Below are positions 4,445 through 25,097 of a stretch of DNA of 59,753 nucleotides, piece by piece. The notes beneath the pieces are model-generated. The model saw nothing but the letters and a program-made list of their open reading frames with translations. It had not been told where the DNA came from and ran no database searches. The stretch lies in UHGV virus genome UHGV-0209512; one strand, written 5' to 3'. This DNA is from a virus. How positions within the stretch are numbered: position 1 is the first letter of the stretch; each line of letters begins with the position of its first letter. Both the position numbers and the translations under genes were made by a program.

Positions 4445-5329
4445 TTACTGCTGCCACGGCGGGACTGCTGCTTGTGCCGGATGCGGTTCAGCTTGCTGCT
4501 GCGGCTGAGCTTGCTGCTGAGGTGCTGCTACCTGGCCCGGCTGTGCTACCTGCTGCGCCCACGGCTGCTGAGCTGCTTCCGGTGCTACTGGCTGTTGTAC
4601 CGGAGCTTGCTGCACTGGCTGCTGTGGTGCTGCGTTTTGAGCAGGATTATCCCACGGCTGCGGTGCGGCATTCTGCCACGGTTGTGCTGCTGCGCCCTGC
4701 TGTGGTGCTGGTTGCTGCACAGGCTGCTGAACTGGTTGCTGTTGCTGCACCGGAGCTTGCTGCTGTACAGGTGCTTGCTGTTGTTGTGCAAACGGGTTAG
4801 CTGCTGGTTGCTGAGGTGCTGCGCCCGGGAAAGCTGGCTGCTGTGCTGGCGCACCTGCACCGAACGGGTTAGCTACTGCCGCTTGAGCACCCATTGCTGG
4901 AGCACCTGCTTCTTTTTCTGCATACTTAACCGGATCGTTGATGTTAGCATAACCGTTAGGCTCGTTGCTGTCTTCATAACCTTCCTGAGAACGAACTTTC
5001 AGACGCAGGTTCAGCGGAATGTTATGCAGTTGAGCAGGAGTATCCCAGCGAATTACGCCAACCGCGTGGGAAAGCGCGCCCAGTTGCTCGTATGCGATAC
5101 GCACAGTGTCTTCGTTGTCGTTAATAACGTTGTAACGAGCGAAAATTTTACGACCTTTAGCAAAACCGTCAATGATACTGAACGTTACCTGGATTGCCAT
5201 ACCGCCATTTTTGGTCGGTTTAAATTCAGATTCTTGAATTACTGCTTTATACCAACCTTTCGGCAATGCGCCGTAAGAAGGTGCTTGATAGCTGCTCGCG
5301 TCAAAGTGGAAATTAGTTGGCATAGTCAT
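4445..5329 (-). CDS. Putative ssDNA-binding protein (DUF669-like N-terminal domain) with ~160-aa Gln/Pro/Ala-rich tail
   Basis: Globular N-terminal ~135 aa followed by a tail of PVQQ/AQQP-type repeats; position between Sak4-like ATPase and exonuclease. Family assignment is from recall. Confidence 0.45.
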   Translation of the reverse strand: MTMPTNFHFDASSYQAPSYGALPKGWYKAVIQESEFKPTKNGGMAIQVTFSIIDGFAKGRKIFARYNVINDNEDTVRIAYEQLGALSHAVGVIRWDTPAQLHNIPLNLRLKVRSQEGYEDSNEPNGYANINDPVKYAEKEAGAPAMGAQAAVANPFGAGAPAQQPAFPGAAPQQPAANPFAQQQQAPVQQQAPVQQQQPVQQPVQQPAPQQGAAAQPWQNAAPQPWDNPAQNAAPQQPVQQAPVQQPVAPEAAQQPWAQQVAQPGQVAAPQQQAQPQQQAEPHPAQAAVPPWQQ

Positions 5330-11759: not shown

Positions 11760-11984
11760 ATGGTCATGTTAAATAAAGTATATAGCACAATGGGCGCGGA
11801 TTATAAAGTTGTACGTCACCCGCGTACTGGTAAATTTGAAGCATATATCCGTCCAATGGGTGAAGGTTGGATGTATTACGGTACTTATGACGACGCTGAG
11901 CAAGCTTATGAAGAAGCGGAAAGTGCGGCGGAAGCATCCGAAATTATGGCAAGGTACGACGTCGATGATTACTATCTCAACTAA
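11760..11984 (+). CDS. Small acidic protein with AP2-like DNA-binding domain pattern (74 aa)
   Basis: GGAGG RBS 8 nt upstream of ATG; RTGKFEAYIRPMGEGWMYYGTYDDAEQAYEEA fits the AP2 pattern; only rightward gene inside the leftward block, with its own terminator. Confidence 0.5.
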   Translation: MVMLNKVYSTMGADYKVVRHPRTGKFEAYIRPMGEGWMYYGTYDDAEQAYEEAESAAEASEIMARYDVDDYYLN

Positions 11985-12010: not shown

Positions 12011-14347
12011 TTATTTGCTTAAGTCTTTGAAAACACTCTCAATTGACTCGTCTATATACCATCCCAACCCCCTGAAATTACGCTTTAACGCATCCTCACG
12101 TGTGACTGGGACGAGTGCTCCCATATCTACAAGTTGTTTGATAGTGAGGTCTGTTGCAGTACCTGCTCCCATCCTGTGATTCTTGAATGCTGCTAACCCG
12201 TAGGTTCTGCGTGTGATAGTTGCCTTCGGAATAATACCGTCAACTCGCAGCTCCTTACGATCACATGCAATTTTACCGCCAAGATAGTCTTTGCAGACCT
12301 GACAGATAGCCTTCACACGCGTTTCATCATCGCCGCCAATAGTACCTTTTTCCCATGCATTGATCATGATGTCCTGTCCGTGCGTAACAAAATCTACCGC
12401 CCATTGCATGTGATTAGGCTGAACGACAGGATTGATCCAGTTTTCCCCAACTGCTAACAGGGATGCAAGACGCAGAGCTTTAAGGTGCGCACGGTTCCAC
12501 GGCTGACGAATAGCTTCGTCTTTAGTTGCGTTAATGTGTTCATCACATAACAAGTTAAACTCCCGTTCAATCCTTTCCGCTTCAGGGCTTAACTGGACAG
12601 TAACGGTCTGGAACTTTGCCATTGTCACCAACGTGTGGTTAACGAGATGGCAGACCATGTCCTTTAATTGTTGTGGCATTGTGATTTCAGGATTTTCGTT
12701 TGCAGGAACACGATCCCCTTCATATTGCACAATGTGGAAACGGGACAAGAAACCGTCTTCCATCATTTCACGGGTTAATGCTTCAAAGAATGTGTCCGGT
12801 GTTGTTTCGCCCAGCACGCTAAACGCCACCCCGTCCATCGTTTTGGTATTATTAGCCTTATCAGAATATCCGATACCGCCAACAACATCCATAGCACCAG
12901 ATTTTTGATACACATCTGTGATAGTTTGCTTCAGGGTGTAGTTTGCAGTGCCAGGTTGAGCTGTTGCCATACCTTTAATGGTTTTACCGAACTCGCCGTT
13001 AATATTCACAAACGAAGTGTGATCCGCAAAACTTTTACGCAAGGCAGGGCCGGAAGCATAGTTAGTCATGTCTACAAATTCATGCACTTGCGGTAATTGC
13101 TCGCCCACTTGCTTACAAATATAACTGGGCCCAGCGTGAAGCATTTCTTTACCCACACCTGATCGGGCAATAAGCACAAAGTAACCGTTTAACCCTGTGT
13201 TGGTGATAGTATTCCACACCTTGCCGCATACGCCGGATAAGAATGCTAAAGATGCAGTGATTGCAATTTCTTTTACCGGACGCTGCGAGGCCTTGTAGAT
13301 ATACTTCGCAAGCTCACCAGCAAGTCCCGGCGGCCATTCAATAGCTGTTGCATCAATGGACGTACTTTCTGCAACTACTATTTCACCGGACGGGCTGACT
13401 GTGGTTACAGGCGTTTCCGTTACCTGCTGCATTGCACTGTGTGCGGCTTGCATACGGGCAGCGTAATCCCGCGCCAGCGCCGCTACGTTTTCCTGGGCAA
13501 TGCGCTCACGCTCCATACGACCGCGGCACATGCGCAAACAACGGTCAATATGAACATTGTTCTTGTTAGCCTTCTCACGTTTGCCCAGTGCGCTGTAACG
13601 GAACAGACGACGACATTGCTCATTACTTTCTGTGTAGAATGCATACATAGAAATAAGGGCAAGGTCTGCTTCAGACTGGGAAGGGAATCCCATTTCAACC
13701 CATTCGCCATTGAAGAGGCGTGCATACTTATCGCCGTTGTCTGCTTCAAGGGCACGCTGGTGAATGGTTGCATCGTCTTCTACCGGATCTTTTTCTACCA
13801 GTTCAATTTCATATGTCTTGCGCTGAAGATCAATTTCATTCACAAGCATAGTAAGGTAATGATCACGCTCTGCAACTGGTTTGTTATAGACAGGATTACC
13901 CGTGCAGATAATAAAACGCTCCTGACTATAAACCTCGACACCATCACGTCGGCGTCCTTTACCGATATTTCCTCTTAACCACAGGTGGACACCCAAGCCT
14001 GACCGACTTACTTCAGTGTAAGTATCGAACGCAGTCATGATCTGTTCGAAGCGACGCAACTGTTCCGGCGTTGTGTGCTTCTTGGGATCCGGTTCATTGG
14101 TTGCGTTCTTCACATCCAGGTCGATGCAGGTGAACGGGTCTTGCGCAGTAAGCACAAAGCCAATATAAGGTTTGTTGAAATGAGCGGCACAACCTTTGGC
14201 AGCTTCAAACGTCATAAGCATATCCGGATCGGTAACATCCGCAGCCATCAGGCGCCCGATATCGTTGTCCCACACAAGCGGCTTTTTGTCCGCATCGGCG
14301 ACAGCCCATTGTGGGAAAGCTTTAATTTCAGCGGGAAACAATTCCAT
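12011..14347 (-). CDS. Replication protein with N-terminal primase-polymerase-like domain (778 aa)
   Basis: N-terminal region with GFVLTAQDPFTCIDLDVKN resembles prim-pol catalytic motifs; central P-loop-like ARSGVGKE is not a canonical Walker A; adjacent to the AT-rich repeat region. Confidence 0.5.
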   Translation of the reverse strand: MELFPAEIKAFPQWAVADADKKPLVWDNDIGRLMAADVTDPDMLMTFEAAKGCAAHFNKPYIGFVLTAQDPFTCIDLDVKNATNEPDPKKHTTPEQLRRFEQIMTAFDTYTEVSRSGLGVHLWLRGNIGKGRRRDGVEVYSQERFIICTGNPVYNKPVAERDHYLTMLVNEIDLQRKTYEIELVEKDPVEDDATIHQRALEADNGDKYARLFNGEWVEMGFPSQSEADLALISMYAFYTESNEQCRRLFRYSALGKREKANKNNVHIDRCLRMCRGRMERERIAQENVAALARDYAARMQAAHSAMQQVTETPVTTVSPSGEIVVAESTSIDATAIEWPPGLAGELAKYIYKASQRPVKEIAITASLAFLSGVCGKVWNTITNTGLNGYFVLIARSGVGKEMLHAGPSYICKQVGEQLPQVHEFVDMTNYASGPALRKSFADHTSFVNINGEFGKTIKGMATAQPGTANYTLKQTITDVYQKSGAMDVVGGIGYSDKANNTKTMDGVAFSVLGETTPDTFFEALTREMMEDGFLSRFHIVQYEGDRVPANENPEITMPQQLKDMVCHLVNHTLVTMAKFQTVTVQLSPEAERIEREFNLLCDEHINATKDEAIRQPWNRAHLKALRLASLLAVGENWINPVVQPNHMQWAVDFVTHGQDIMINAWEKGTIGGDDETRVKAICQVCKDYLGGKIACDRKELRVDGIIPKATITRRTYGLAAFKNHRMGAGTATDLTIKQLVDMGALVPVTREDALKRNFRGLGWYIDESIESVFKDLSK

Positions 14348-14368: not shown

Positions 14369-14650
14369 TTAGCCATAGATCTGTTTCCTCCGCCATTCTT
14401 CATATGCTGAATTATTTGCGTCATATACTTCGCAAGCGTCTTTCATGCTGTCGTACAGTCCAAGGAAGGTTCGCCTTGTTTCCCCGCCTGCATCTACCCA
14501 TGTTAATCGGGCAAGCCATTTACCCGTTTTGTAATCGAAAGTAACGCCCTCACGCCCGCTCACATTTTCCCGAGGTACTCGCGGTTTCCGGCGTGCAAGC
14601 CCGCGACCTTTGAAATTACTGCCCGGGACAGTCCTGCACTTACGACCCAC
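14369..14650 (-). CDS. AP2-domain DNA-binding protein (about 93 aa)
   Basis: GVTFDYKTGKWLARLTW ... FLGLYDSMKDACEVYD matches the AP2 pattern; no in-frame ATG, proposed GTG start at 14648-14650 preceded by GGAGG with 6-nt spacer (track ORF starts at TTG 14668). Confidence 0.45.
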   Translation of the reverse strand: MGRKCRTVPGSNFKGRGLARRKPRVPRENVSGREGVTFDYKTGKWLARLTWVDAGGETRRTFLGLYDSMKDACEVYDANNSAYEEWRRKQIYG

Positions 14651-14855
14651 GACCAACCTCCGACACAATCCGACCAGCGTGCAACATTAAGACGGGCTCT
14701 GCAACTTCGCGGACATAAACGTAAACGTTAGCAATTTTAACTTCGCCAGGCAGCTTACCGCGTAGCGAACATAATTTGCGACGGCTAAGACCGAAGCGCT
14801 TTTCGATTTCTGATGTGGTTATGTATTTAAGATCAAATTCTTTTTGATGGTCCAT
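14640..14855 (-). CDS. Helix-turn-helix DNA-binding protein (71 aa)
   Basis: ATG 14853-14855 preceded by GGAGG (5-nt spacer); ITTSEIEKRFGLSRRKLCSLRGK looks like an HTH; its stop overlaps the AP2 gene start. Confidence 0.5.
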   Translation of the reverse strand: MDHQKEFDLKYITTSEIEKRFGLSRRKLCSLRGKLPGEVKIANVYVYVREVAEPVLMLHAGRIVSEVGRGS

Positions 14856-15011
14856 ACCTACCTCCTAACAGCACTATACACAATACATACCGGCGCAGCC
14901 ACAATTATTCCACCTGAAGTTATGATGTGAGAGGATTGTTAATATATAACCACATGTGATGGAAAGTTTTGGGTAGGAATAGTTGGTGCTCCACAGTTTG
15001 CGCAATGTGAC

Positions 15012-15052
15012 CGAAAGTTTTGTGAGTTTTGCGAAGTTTTGCGAAGTTTTGT
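15012..15052. repeat. Tandem phased repeats (G/C)GA(A/G)GTTTTG, four copies at 9-10 bp spacing
   Basis: AGTTTT at 15016, 15025, 15035 and 15045 (a further copy at 14965); inverted copy CAAAACTCGCAAAA near 15450. Confidence 0.5.
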
Positions 15053-15242
15053 GGTGCCACTGTTGCTAAAAACTTTAATAAAAACAATAAGTTGGTGCAG
15101 TAAGTTTTTGCGTTTTACCCCAAAACGCATTTTTTACCCTAACACCCAAATCCCGACTGTTAGTAAAAAACGTATATAAATCAATAATATAGATACTAAA
15201 TGAATAGTGAATGGAATGGGTAGAAATCCAAATGATGGAAGT

Positions 15243-15257
15243 GGAATAAATTATTCC
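15243..15257. promoter_or_regulatory. Perfect 15-bp palindrome GGAATAA-A-TTATTCC (candidate operator)
   Basis: 7-bp arms around a single central base, read directly from sequence. Confidence 0.45.
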
Positions 15258-15525
15258 TACTTGATAGAATAATGGAATCGGTACTCCAGAGCGCAAAAAC
15301 CTAAAACTTTCAGTCAACAGACTAAAAACGGATAGAAACTAAAAGTTAATAAGTAATACCATAAATATATATAAAATAAGGATTTATTAGTAATGTATAT
15401 AGTACCTATTTGTATTATTTGAATGTTTTTGGGTCATTGTTAAAAAGTCCCAAAACTCGCAAAAAGTGAAAGAATACAATTCGTGACAGGATTGTTAATG
15501 GAATAAGGTGTATGGATATACAGTA

Positions 15526-15570
15526 TTATTCCAGATTCCGGAATAATTGGAATAATGGAATAAATTATTG
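15526..15570. promoter_or_regulatory. Second cluster of the GGAATAA/TTATTCC motif (inverted repeat plus near-palindrome)
   Basis: TTATTCC (15526-15532) and GGAATAA (15540-15546) around palindromic ATTCCGGAAT; then GGAATAA-A-TTATTG at 15557-15570. Confidence 0.45.
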
Positions 15571-15684
15571 AACTATTGTGATCGGAAGGTATATCAAGCT
15601 ATAATGCGCTTAATCGCGGGATATTGGAGGAGGACTTTATTGCGCGGTTAACCGGACCAGTAGGAGGACTGGCCCGGAAGTAGT

Positions 15685-16011
15685 TTAGAGCTGTACAGGT
15701 GTGAAGTGGGCTAGCGTATCGTCGGACATAATACCCGACAGTTTTTCGCATACCCAGTCGGACCAAATGCTGTCCGGTTCCTGGCGATGCACAAACCAGA
15801 TTTCGGATGTGCCTTCTTTGCGCATCGGTTGCACTTCTACAAGGAACTTGTCCTGCATAAGGCGGGTGAAGCATACGCTGGTCATTGGGACCGGCTTTTC
15901 GTGTTTATTGTAATAAGGAGTCAGTAATTTATTTCCGAAGTTGGCAACTTCATAAACTGTTCCTTTGCGAAGACCTCTGATGTCTGTGTAAGAGCGGATA
16001 AATGTTTTCAT
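15685..16011 (-). CDS. Hypothetical protein (108 aa)
   Basis: ATG at 16009-16011 with GGAG upstream; first gene downstream of the AT-rich region. Confidence 0.5.
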   Translation of the reverse strand: MKTFIRSYTDIRGLRKGTVYEVANFGNKLLTPYYNKHEKPVPMTSVCFTRLMQDKFLVEVQPMRKEGTSEIWFVHRQEPDSIWSDWVCEKLSGIMSDDTLAHFTPVQL

Positions 16012-18601: not shown

Positions 18602-18829
18602 ATGCGTAGTTTCAAATGTGTAAGCGTAAATGCTACTGGTAACGGTCTGTTCACAGCAGGTAATGTATATGACTTCAACATGGAAAGTTACAAAGACACA
18701 ACGCTTACAGGTGTGATGTTCGGTGGCGCTCGTGTCGTTCGCTGCCATTTAAACAAGAACACGGAAAATGAATATACCCTTATCAGTCGCTACACGGGCA
18801 AGCGGTTAGCTGTGTTCCATGCAGCTTAA
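18602..18829 (+). CDS. Hypothetical protein (75 aa)
   Basis: ORF 18536..18829 trimmed to ATG 18602 with GGAG upstream. Confidence 0.4.
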   Translation: MRSFKCVSVNATGNGLFTAGNVYDFNMESYKDTTLTGVMFGGARVVRCHLNKNTENEYTLISRYTGKRLAVFHAA

Positions 18830-18895: not shown

Positions 18896-19264
18896 GGCGA
18901 AACAGGCACACAGCGTCGCGCACAGCTCGCACAGCGCACACAGACCCACGCAGGCCCAGCCGCGCGACCCGACCCATCCTTTTCCAGGTACTTGGAGCGC
19001 TGGGGCGTGCCCTGTCCATCCTGATAGTAAGTTCTTGCCTAAATCTCACCTATCACCTTACATATCCACCTACATCCATGACCCCACCTACCTTCTTTTT
19101 GAATATATTGCGCTCATCCTTTCTAAATATATGGATTTTGGTAGTAAATTCTGAGTCGTCAACGTATAATTCGTCTTGTAGCTGCTCCATAGCTACCATC
19201 TTTAAGCGGATGCAACCAATTTCTATCAATTCACACCTGTTTTTAGAGCATCAAGGAGGTATTT

Positions 19265-19785: not shown

Positions 19786-19836
19786 TTATCAATCTATAAT
19801 GGGCTCTAAGGAGCCCTTAATTATCTGGAGGTTGTT

Positions 19837-20136
19837 ATGCTGTATTTAGGAATGGATTTAAATCGAGAAAAACCGGATATCCCTGCGGTAGATTCTAAAA
19901 CTGCAATCAAAGTCCTGTTTTTCGGTCAGGAAATCCCTGTGGCGCCTTGGGCTACTCACATTGCAGTGGACGCTAACGGTGTTGTCCACTGTTATAATAG
20001 TAAGCCTAAAGCATATGAACAACTTAAAGAATGGCTGCATGATGGTCATAAGAGTCGCTACTGCGGTGAAGTTGACCTTGAAGGTGCGGACTGGCGCGAT
20101 ACGTTGATGGAGATTACTACATATGTCTGTAGCTGA
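19837..20136 (+). CDS. Hypothetical protein (99 aa)
   Basis: GGAGG RBS before ATG. Confidence 0.5.
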   Translation: MLYLGMDLNREKPDIPAVDSKTAIKVLFFGQEIPVAPWATHIAVDANGVVHCYNSKPKAYEQLKEWLHDGHKSRYCGEVDLEGADWRDTLMEITTYVCS

Positions 20137-20212
20137 AGTTACCACATTCATAATAGCATTTGCGGTTGCTTTATTTCTTCTAGCTAAGTTAGATTTATTT
20201 ATTGGGTGATTT

Positions 20213-20404
20213 ATGCAAAGACTGTCAGATGAGCGTGTTGCTAAGCTTGCGGAATATGACTGTGCAAGCAATGACGAAGTTATGTCGTTGGCGCAAGAAG
20301 TAAAGGAACTTCGTGCTGTAGCAAAGGACTTCCTGCGTCGTAACGCTAACGGTCCTTTGTTCTATCGTGATTTGTATAACCGTTTTAAGGAGATTGTGAA
20401 ATGA
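20213..20404 (+). CDS. Hypothetical protein (63 aa)
   Basis: ORF in the small-gene array; no motif. Confidence 0.4.
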   Translation: MQRLSDERVAKLAEYDCASNDEVMSLAQEVKELRAVAKDFLRRNANGPLFYRDLYNRFKEIVK

Positions 20405-24356: not shown

Positions 24357-24519
24357 GAAAATTCCTTTGGTTTACACAAGAGATATTATCCGACGTTTAC
24401 AGGATACAGAAACTGCTCTGACTGAATGTAAGCTAAGGGTTAAGGAAATCATACGCTATGAAGCTGAAAATGTTTCGCTTGATTTTGTAGGATCAAGCAA
24501 TTATATTCAGCCTAAATAG
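24214..24519 (+). CDS. o-spanin-like lipoprotein candidate, overlapping the i-spanin gene in another frame
   Basis: ORF 24157..24519 trimmed to ATG 24214; hydrophobic signal LILTSVFLMICAGCS with Cys, then Pro-rich QPPPAPQ; lipobox is not canonical. Confidence 0.4.
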   Translation: MLTSKLILTSVFLMICAGCSTQTQPPPAPQIVKVRLPAHLLVECREVEKIPLVYTRDIIRRLQDTETALTECKLRVKEIIRYEAENVSLDFVGSSNYIQPK

Positions 24520-24539
24520 CAATAAGAAGGGGAGCTTCC

Positions 24540-25097
24540 ATGAACGGGGCAAGTCAAGAGCAATATGATCGTGACTGGACGAACTATATCCAGTATGCAA
24601 ATAGCTTGTCCGCTGACGAGATGGCAATACGTGACAAAGTTGTTGCTGAGTATATGTTCGACTACAATTGGACTAACGCTTGCATGAGATGCGGGTTCAA
24701 TGCTATGTTTGCACAGGAGCTTGGCCAACGCTTTGCCACGGACTGTTACGTTCGATGGAAGCTCAAGGAGATTGAAAGATCCCGTGTTCAACGTACTTCT
24801 GAGCAAGCTAACATTGAAGCAGACCTAGAGCGTCAGCATATCATTGAAGCATTAAAACGTGAAGCTCATTATACAGGACCGGGATCTTCTCAAGCTGCTA
24901 GAGTAGCCGCATTGGGCAAGCTTGCACAAATTTATGATTTGGATGCGCCCAAGAAGGCTAAAATTGATGTTACTAACAGAGGCGGCGTAATGATAGTCCC
25001 TGCTGTAGCAAATATTGACGAATGGGAAAAAACTGCATCCGAGTCTCAACAACGACTAGTTAAAGAGACTGAAGATGGAGCTAAACCGACAACCTGA
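24540..25097 (+). CDS. Putative terminase small subunit
   Basis: 185-aa ORF immediately upstream of and overlapping the large terminase gene; assignment by position. Confidence 0.45.
   Translation: MNGASQEQYDRDWTNYIQYANSLSADEMAIRDKVVAEYMFDYNWTNACMRCGFNAMFAQELGQRFATDCYVRWKLKEIERSRVQRTSEQANIEADLERQHIIEALKREAHYTGPGSSQAARVAALGKLAQIYDLDAPKKAKIDVTNRGGVMIVPAVANIDEWEKTASESQQRLVKETEDGAKPTT

Follow-up and report, generated by a model that had tools for sequence, protein, structure and literature searches.

The virus genome UHGV-0209512, a stretch of 59,753 nucleotides referred to here as the window, carries an 829-bp non-coding gap (14856-15684) within a block of leftward genes. On the basis of the gene map, repeats, GC content and alignments, we regard this intergenic region as a candidate replication origin and promoter region. 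Positions 14600-15900 share 94-97% identity with the Escherichia phages RCIP0359, ECP2304, GottfriedDienst, Skure and others, and are partially matched by Seurat, CAjan and WildeMaa; judged by sequence, the source phage is a Seuratvirus (Queuovirinae) coliphage. None of the related GenBank records examined annotates an origin, and the searchable literature contains no description of one for Seuratvirus or Nonagvirus.

Gene context and repeat architecture of the intergenic region

The minus-strand genes of the window occupy positions 1 to ~18750. Within them, the gap is bounded by the start codon of a 71-aa gene (14640-14855, minus strand) and by the stop codon of a 108-aa early gene (15685-16011, minus strand), downstream of which it sits. 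On its 3' side along the minus strand lies a three-gene operon consisting of the 71-aa gene, a 99-aa AP2-like open reading frame (ORF; 14369-14668, minus strand) and a gene for a 778-aa primase-helicase (12011-14347, minus strand), followed by further genes of the replication module. A first-pass annotation had placed the region downstream of its helix-turn-helix (HTH), AP2 and primase genes, which is wrong in transcription terms: these genes are on the minus strand, and the region lies upstream (5') of them. Its description of a 0.8-kb AT-rich non-coding stretch is borne out by the length of 829 bp and a GC content of 0.35 (0.31 at 15001-15500), compared with ~0.44 elsewhere in the genome. 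The absence of a credible ORF also stands: mechanically called ORFs within the gap are of 43-80 aa only, nearly all related records lack annotation over the conserved core, and relatives differ there by insertions and deletions.

Alignment of the gap with STP-SP5, Seurat, SA126VB, WildeMaa and SeppeHuegi resolves it into a four-part mosaic: a variable left module (14856 to ~15290), a conserved AT-rich core (~15294-15475), a variable right module (15480-15575) and a conserved right block (15576-15684) holding a promoter-like TTGTGA-N18-TATAAT sequence and a hairpin. The AT-rich centre of the core (15310-15424) combines a stability minimum with invariant alignment columns and is the candidate DNA unwinding element; within it, a ~60-bp block hardly varies among the Seuratviruses of E. 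coli and Salmonella. Nearest-neighbour energies identify 15331-15430 as the 100-bp stretch of lowest duplex stability in the 59.7-kb window (z = 4.4, 83% AT), and the runner-up, 15173-15272, falls in the same gap.

The first of two short repeat families, motif-1, has the consensus AGTTTTG(C/G)G here and is present in ~16 AGTTTTGSG-like copies within 14964-15466, a span of ~500 bp. With up to one mismatch allowed, AGTTTTGSG is matched at 35 places in the window, 9 of them in the gap, which makes up 1.4% of the window's length. Position 14964 carries AAGTTTTGGG and position 14995 the degenerate copy CAGTTTGCG; both belong to a distal cluster (14964-15053, plus strand) that also includes four AAGTTTTG(C/T)G units in a tandem array of 10-bp period (15015-15053, plus strand), whose T-tracts are in helical phase. 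The AGTTTT positions first reported for this array (15016, 15025, 15035 and 15045) are exact; Tandem Repeats Finder gives a period of 10, 3.8 copies and the consensus AAGTTTTGCG, and the array is kept in STP-SP5 despite ~25% overall divergence. Further to the right, AAGTTTTTGCG is followed by an inverted motif-1 pair, GCGTTTTACCCCAAAACGC (15102-15129), which scores as a plus-strand terminator-like hairpin; a terminator role for 15109-15129 is doubtful because the hairpin is not conserved in STP-SP5.

The proximal copies of motif-1 flank the AT-rich centre. Two reverse copies, CGCAAAAAC and CTAAAACTT (15292-15309, minus strand), lie at its left edge, and one forward copy, GTTTTTGGG, with three reverse copies, TTAAAAAG, CCCAAAACT and CGCAAAAAG, lies to its right (15425-15466) at 8-9-bp spacing. 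Both sides are occupied and the innermost pair is inverted, in a pattern that is not of the simple symmetric type. The inverted AGTTTT copy first noticed near 15450 is found at 15452, with others at 15069 and 15303. An iteron-type origin would be expected to hold at least six short iterons in non-coding DNA beside the initiator gene; the gap holds the ~16 AGTTTTGSG-like copies just described.

The second family, motif-2, is represented in the window by GGAATAA. Both GGAATAA and TGGAAT occur in eight copies in the gap, in agreement with the many copies first noticed. They include a palindrome, GGAATAAATTATTCC (15243-15257), and a right variable module (15483-15563) with a second GTGACAGGATTGTTAAT copy and five GGAATAA (15500, 15526 in reverse, 15540, 15549 and 15557), which is missing from phages with CCCTAT or CACTAT repeats and replaced there by a shorter unrelated stretch. 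The duplicated AGGATTGTTAAT lies at 14932 as first given, its second copy at 15488 rather than 15489; both belong to a 17-nt duplicate, GTGA(G/C)AGGATTGTTAAT, at 14927-14943 and 15483-15499. All sequence elements of the first-pass annotation are thus confirmed to within a single base.

To assess the significance of the repeats, the sequence of the gap itself was shuffled 2000 times with its dinucleotides preserved. AGTTTT occurs 9 times (shuffled mean 1.07) and GGAATAA 8 times (shuffled mean 0.27), and neither count was reached in any of the 2000 shuffles; any 7-mer at all attained eight copies in 19 of the 2000. Neither AGTTTT nor GGAATAA is enriched genome-wide, and the unusual feature is the clustering of both motifs in the gap rather than their frequency in the genome. 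The region is a real, non-random, conserved non-coding element.

The primase-helicase and covariation of motif-1 with its C-terminal domain

The proposed initiator is the 778-aa primase-helicase, for which domain predictions indicate a fusion of an AEP prim-pol, an MCM-like AAA+ ATPase and a C-terminal winged helix. The primase-polymerase-like assignment made at first holds: the N-terminus is an AEP prim-pol related to NrS-1 and to PriRep5 of SaPI5, a member of the Staphylococcus aureus pathogenicity islands (SaPIs). In a PDB sequence search, residues 9-264 matched PriRep5 (7OLA) with an E-value of 8e-11 and the NrS-1 primase-polymerase with ~2e-7, and the Pfam family NrS1-1_pol-like_HBD scored 28.4 bits against a cut-off of 27.9. 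The protein contains an MCM-like AAA+ ATPase, and thus pairs a helicase of the hexameric, replicative type with a winged helix predicted for its C-terminal domain (CTD; residues 655-778, encoded at 12014-12385, minus strand), the proposed iteron reader. Across the E. coli members compared, the N-terminal 300 residues are ~100% identical, and the C-terminal half falls into alleles. Comparison of the CTD alleles shows that the hydrophobic scaffold is kept; variation falls on the wing, on the second helix and on the beginning of the long third helix.

To compare repeats with CTD alleles, motif-1 was tabulated in 12 sequences, comprising the window, sequenced relatives and the metagenome contigs L021 and L022. 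The variant GTTTTGCG accompanies CTD type I, GTTTATAG types II and III, and TTTTATAG type IV. Type I phages (the window, RCIP0359, STP-SP5, WildeMaa and Greed) carry GTTTTG 5-7 times and GTTTAT at most once; type II phages (Seurat, CAjan, SeppeHuegi and SLUR75) carry no GTTTTG and 6-7 GTTTAT; yong3, with type III, has nine GTTTAT; and the type IV contigs L021 and L022 have TTTTATA(G). The switch falls on the same aligned sites within an otherwise conserved core. At the left sites, CAAAAAC-CTAAAAC of type I becomes TATAAAC-TTATAAAC in type II. The right sites read GTTTTTGG / TTAAAAAG / CCAAAAC / GCAAAAA in type I, GTTTATGG / TATAAAC / TATAAAT / CATAAAC in type II and GTTTTATAG / TGTAAAAC / AATAAAAT / TATAAAAC in type IV; the repeats of L021 and L022 at homologous sites take the form (G/A)TTTTATAG / TATAAAA(C/T). 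Phages of types II and IV also carry their own motif variant in the left-hand module that corresponds to the tandem array.

The two metagenome contigs, which were recovered by searching with the C-terminal half of the primase, narrow the location of the signal. Their primases share 79-87% identity with type I over alignment columns 301-660 and 38% over the last ~120 residues, where they are 95% identical to each other. The repeats of the two contigs differ accordingly; therefore, the covariation maps to the CTD. At the BLAST level, the type of the primase C-half equals the type of the core in 35 of 35 Seuratvirus records of the phage collection (19 with 19 and 16 with 16, made up of identical records each time). 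Further observations speak against mere physical linkage. The CTD coding region lies ~2.9 kb from the core, and between them are the near-identical primase N-terminus and an exchanged cassette. CTD types I, II and IV each occur with two cassettes or motif-2 types: GGAATAA and CACTAT for type I, CACTAT and CCCTAT for type II, and GGAATAA and CCCTAT for type IV. When 250-bp segments covering all of the window were compared with the full genome sequences of WildeMaa, SeppeHuegi and Seurat, the I/I versus II/II pattern in a backbone of 90-99% identity was confined to the primase C-half and the core; one further segment, a 78-aa gene discussed below, was excluded.

These data provide good but not conclusive sequence evidence for a functional coupling of the CTD and motif-1. 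With four CTD alleles and three repeat variants, the covariation agrees with an iteron sequence specific to its cognate winged helix, and the candidate binder of the AGTTTTG repeats would be the primase-helicase itself. The first-pass annotation had named a lack of repeat conservation in related phages as grounds for refutation; what the relatives show is that the positions are kept and that the sequences switch in a protein-matched way.

The two small proteins of the operon had been proposed as binders under the labels HTH and AP2, and both labels rest on scores below the Pfam cut-offs; neither protein tracks either repeat family. The 71-aa product of the first gene (PHROG 11967) is a candidate Cox- or excisionase-like HTH protein with homologues in every Seuratvirus lineage as well as in Pseudomonas phage NP1, and is annotated as 'regulatory protein cox' in yong3. 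Profile and sequence searches with the window protein returned no Pfam, NCBIfam or PDB match, and its homologues reach HTH_17 at sub-threshold scores (NP1, E 0.008; L021, E 0.075; cut-off 27 bits). It was rejected as a reader of either family: L021 combines GGAATAA with a 43%-identical allele, the recognition helix in L022 (CCCTAT) is nearly the same as that in SeppeHuegi (CACTAT), and the window and WildeMaa have motif-1 in common with alleles only 46% identical.

The 99-aa ORF matches Pfam AP2 (PF00847) at 21.7 bits (E 2.5e-4), below the gathering score of 33.3 bits. It matches PHROG 99 'HNH endonuclease' over its AP2 part only and shares 49% identity with the C-terminus of the 207-aa 'HNH homing endonuclease' that occupies this site in yong3; it probably represents what is left of an HNH-AP2 homing endonuclease, not a regulator. 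In relatives, the small HTH-like gene and the primase gene are separated by full HNH endonuclease genes (locus L008, 2878-3501; locus L133, 750-1274). As a reader of GGAATAA, the AP2-like protein was discarded, since its counterparts in STP-SP5 and L021 are only 25% identical and the closest one is found in yong3 (CCCCTATA). A second weak AP2-like ORF of 74 aa (11760-11984, plus strand; PHROG 22269; Pfam E 0.006) is convergent with the primase gene, lies just downstream of it and is kept in relatives.

Motif-2 assorts separately from motif-1. Elsewhere it takes the form CCCTAT(A), with 12 copies in Seurat and CAjan, 9 in L022 and 4 in yong3, or CACTAT(A), with 7-10 copies in WildeMaa, Greed, SeppeHuegi and SLUR75. 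The primase-helicase was rejected as its reader, the window and WildeMaa proteins being 99.6% identical yet accompanied by GGAATAA and CACTAT, respectively. The terminase small subunit was rejected likewise: at 24501-24750 the window and Seurat share 97% identity and yet differ in motif-2. A 250-aa Seurat62-like protein is only partly consistent with a reader of CCCTAT or CACTAT; it is absent from GGAATAA phages and from yong3 (CCCCTATA). Another candidate binder is encoded at WildeMaa 55601-55800 (locus L016, bas23_0085/0086; window equivalent near 19800-20400), which, the cassette and a tail-fibre segment aside, is the only segment that the two CACTAT-type genomes, WildeMaa and SeppeHuegi, have in common and the window and Seurat lack.

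A 78-aa gene (53784-54020, minus strand) was considered as a partner of motif-1 and rejected: besides the window, only three phages carry it, and one of them, phiG7, is of type II. It lies between the genes for a DNA polymerase beta subunit and DpdA. Its only other Seuratvirus carriers are WildeMaa, GottfriedDienst and phiG7, and DNA matches of ~70% turn up in the records of two unrelated E. coli phages of larger size (111-116 kb); the gene has the look of a small mobile gene that occurs sporadically.

Replication origin, transcription control, DNA end or non-coding RNA

The first-pass annotation had offered an origin, a master regulatory region or a non-coding RNA. Sequence comparison favours the origin among these, given a stability minimum flanked by repeats that covary with a predicted winged helix, and we estimate a probability of roughly 65% that the region serves the phage as an iteron-type replication origin and that the adjacent 778-aa primase-helicase recognises it. 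In the mechanism we propose, the C-terminal winged helix would bind the AGTTTTGSG repeats flanking the AT-rich centre (15310-15424) and also the phased tandem array ~300 bp to the left of that centre. The oligomerised primase-helicase would then melt the AT-rich centre and load itself as the replicative helicase, and the N-terminal prim-pol domain would make the first primers for the phage DNA polymerase. On this model, the CTD (residues 655-778) should prefer DNA containing AGTTTTGCG over the type II or type IV versions.

Host initiation signals and base composition were also considered. Near the AT-rich element, DnaA boxes (TTATNCACA) amount to a single one-mismatch site in the region, compared with 1.47 expected, and consensus scans for DnaA, IHF and Fis detected no enrichment in the region; the lack of DnaA and IHF enrichment fits a self-loading initiator, as a weaker line of support. 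Cumulative GC skew has its minimum at ~15000, with leftward genes at +0.03 to the right of the region and -0.09 to the left. The sign thus changes near 15000 and not at the strand switch near 18800, a pattern that weakly favours an origin. A search of IMG/VR with the 16-nt core returned 107 mostly chance matches, with only three Seuratvirus loci and no new allele, and contig L023 has no comparable intergenic region at this position. In Pseudomonas phage NP1, a 399-bp gap (locus L010, 2098-2496) lies upstream of the homologous small-HTH and primase operon and holds three GTGTTAAT copies and an AT-rich patch in a locus of 58% GC; it may be an analogous origin.

Several points weigh against an origin read by the CTD. 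The related genomes do not make 35 of 35 into 35 independent events, as they represent about seven haplotypes with three or four CTD types. Phage yong3 has a distinct CTD (45% identity to type II) yet a type II-like repeat, and GTTTTGCG, GTTTATAG and TTTTATAG are all AT-rich kin, so that part of the signal could be drift in linked backbones. The same covariation would be expected if the primase-helicase had binding sites there merely for the repression of its own operon. In the related phages Vid5 and JenP1, which possess the small HTH-like gene, the primase or both, this position lacks a comparable intergenic region. The orientation of the repeats around the AT-rich centre differs from the simple symmetric pattern of SaPIs, and the ECP2304 record hints at a virion DNA end in the region and so at a different or additional function.

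Transcription control might be the only function of the region, with an operon promoter and operators, an early-to-middle switch, and repeats bound by the primase-helicase or other regulators; we consider this rather unlikely. The position directly upstream of the operon of the 71-aa, AP2-like and primase genes suits it, as do promoter-like sites on both strands. On the minus strand, where another promoter-like site lies at 15471-15498, a sigma-70 scan finds a site for the 71-aa operon at 14904-14931 (CTCACA, a 16-nt spacer and a TG-extended AATAAT) whose -10 element overlaps a GGAATAA copy; this last site is rated weak because promoter-like sites are as frequent in shuffles, with 5 matches in the region against 4.3 expected, a result that counts against the transcription reading as a whole. 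The rightward TTGTGA-N18-TATAAT (15576-15605, plus strand) is strongly conserved, being near-invariant in the aligned lineages and kept as a recognisable variant in L021 and L022, and faces a plus-strand gene in STP-SP5. In the homologous gap of SA126VB, the authors of the record mark a promoter close to the consensus as well as a terminator, and the small HTH-like protein, a conserved first or second gene of the operon, recalls ORF56 of pRN1 (PMC2777425). Against these points, ~16 copies spread over 500 bp around the least stable DNA exceed the needs of an operator, and the repeats track the winged helix of the helicase-primase, not the HTH-like protein. A role in transcription is possible as a second function compatible with the origin: the region probably also contains promoters, and the comparative evidence favours an origin over the 'regulatory region' of the first-pass annotation as the main role.

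A packaged DNA end is improbable as the explanation of the whole region, although one relative points that way. In ECP2304 (OR880647.1; 97% identical here), the first 3,695 bp equal the last 3,695 bp, and the region would then hold the inner limit of a direct terminal repeat of ~3.7 kb, with some of the short repeats, especially the lineage-specific motif-2 cluster, serving as packaging or cutting signals. The boundaries of this duplication fall at 15243/15244 in the GGAATAAATTATTCC palindrome on the left and at ~19014 on the right, both non-coding, the latter in the stretch that separates leftward from rightward early genes. Each lineage has its own motif-2 cluster at the aligned position; phage iggy, also of the Queuovirinae, has a 1,091-bp terminal repeat (PMC10484667), and the physical end of 9g lies in a non-coding promoter region (PMC4276943). 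However, the duplication comes from one database record without a paper and could be an assembly overlap, the N-terminus of the terminase small subunit does not follow motif-2, and the covariation of motif-1 with the CTD and the AT-rich centre would be left unexplained. Even less room remains for a small non-coding RNA encoded by the conserved core, which we regard as very improbable. Conservation of the core (15294-15475) exceeds that of some flanking genes, and promoter-like sites and the terminator-like hairpin at 15109-15129 are nearby; that hairpin, however, is not kept in STP-SP5, core folding is no better than in shuffles on either strand (z = -1.54 and -0.65), the whole window has no Rfam match at the gathering score and no tRNA or tmRNA genes, and lineage differences hit repeated short motifs rather than paired stems.

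A DNA end and an origin are not mutually exclusive. If the terminal repeat of ECP2304 is real, motif-2 might belong to packaging; the duplication itself (loci L132 and L133 of ECP2304) would, as a real direct terminal repeat, contain the small early genes. There is a slim chance that the region is a two-key junction, in which an origin with a swappable winged-helix reader is joined to motif-2 marking the inner end of the ~3.7-kb terminal repeat. If true, replication initiation and the regeneration or packaging of the terminal repeat would be physically coupled at one site, and E. coli would offer a tractable system with an MCM-type helicase self-loading at a defined origin.

Other features were recorded around the region. 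The hairpin CCGGACCAG-TAGGAGGA-CTGGCCCGG (15652-15677) is conserved at the 3' end of the upstream leftward genes; its loop, TAGGAGGA, reads UCCUCC on the other strand, a terminator is annotated here in SA126VB, and changes in its stems in L021 and L022 are compensated when judged by eye. The plus-strand site at 15576-15605 points into the antisense of the 108-aa gene and is followed by GGAGGAGG and this hairpin. Beside the strand switch, 18900-19000 is unusually GC-rich and non-coding, with repeated CGCACAGC-like units (AACAGGCACACAGCGTCGCGCACAGCTCGCACAGCGCACACAGACCC...), and is not shared with ECP2304. Farther away, a 294-aa protein (4445-5329, minus strand) has a long Q/P/A-rich low-complexity C-terminal half, which accounts for the local GC peak of 0.59 at 4501-5000.

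Known initiator systems and significance of the candidate origin

The candidate origin and its proposed initiator can be compared with several known systems. SaPI Rep is a self-loading initiator-helicase whose C-terminal winged helix binds 5-6-nt iterons flanking an AT-rich centre; SaPI origins and initiators form element-specific pairs, the primase is fused in SaPI5, and the Rep2 ATPase of SaPI2 is of the MCM type (PMC9371898). The Seuratvirus locus shares with SaPIs a predicted C-terminal winged helix on a helicase proposed to load itself, multiple putative iterons on both sides of an AT-rich centre and repeats matched to the presumed initiator, and with SaPI5 the fusion of primase to helicase, the N-terminus of the window protein matching PriRep5 (7OLA). 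The differences are equally clear. Whereas a SaPI origin lies immediately downstream of rep, the candidate origin is upstream of its operon, ~0.5-1.1 kb from the primase start, with two small genes separating it from the start codon. At ~500-600 bp it is also larger, and it adds a phased tandem array and a second family of repeats that assorts on its own; its carrier is a virulent coliphage and not a satellite, and the combination of an MCM-like ATPase with a fused primase is outside the three SaPI prototypes.

In lambdoid phages, the specificity domain of O and the ori iterons swap together as a module between related phages. The lambda iterons lie inside the O gene, and O, which is no helicase itself, depends on P to bring in host DnaB. 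Exchange of the initiator specificity domain together with the iterons is the point of similarity here; unlike in lambda, the candidate iterons are outside the gene of the proposed initiator, which is itself the predicted helicase.

P4 alpha binds type I iterons in ori and in a distant second cluster, crr. Its single polypeptide carries a primase, a hexameric helicase and, at the C-terminus, a winged helix that binds the origin (PMC2777425; PDB 1KA8), and the order of primase, helicase and winged helix in the window protein is that of P4 alpha and of pRN1 ORF904. P4 has a DnaG-type primase and an SF3 helicase, in contrast to the AEP prim-pol and MCM-like ATPase here, and the CTD showed no sequence similarity to the C-terminal domain of P4 alpha. 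In pRN1, the gene for ORF56, a small DNA-binding protein with sequence specificity, lies just upstream of, and is co-transcribed with, the gene for the prim-pol, helicase and winged helix, and ORF56 represses the orf56/orf904 co-transcript (PMC2777425); the Seuratvirus operon has a similar layout. Unlike the Seuratvirus locus, pRN1 has an SF3 helicase, no iterons were found in it, and its essential cis region is downstream of orf904 (PMC2777425); the small proteins are also unrelated, one being CopG-like and the other a putative excisionase-type HTH protein. BcMCM of a Bacillus cereus prophage is likewise a phage AEP-type primase/polymerase fused to an MCM-like AAA+ helicase (PMC3273815, PMC2715239). 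The text searched describes no origin and no sequence-specific C-terminal recognition for BcMCM, whereas a candidate origin and a candidate specificity domain can be named here.

Iterons, an AT-rich centre and a winged-helix initiator-helicase are already well known from SaPIs, P4 and plasmids. Several Seuratviruses, including members of the BASEL collection, serve as model phages, and for these the candidate origin and its probable reader domain would provide a direct experimental handle and a route to engineering replication specificity. The three or four cognate pairs may further constitute a natural specificity-swap series with which recognition and opening of an origin by an MCM-like, primase-fused helicase could be studied in E. 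coli.

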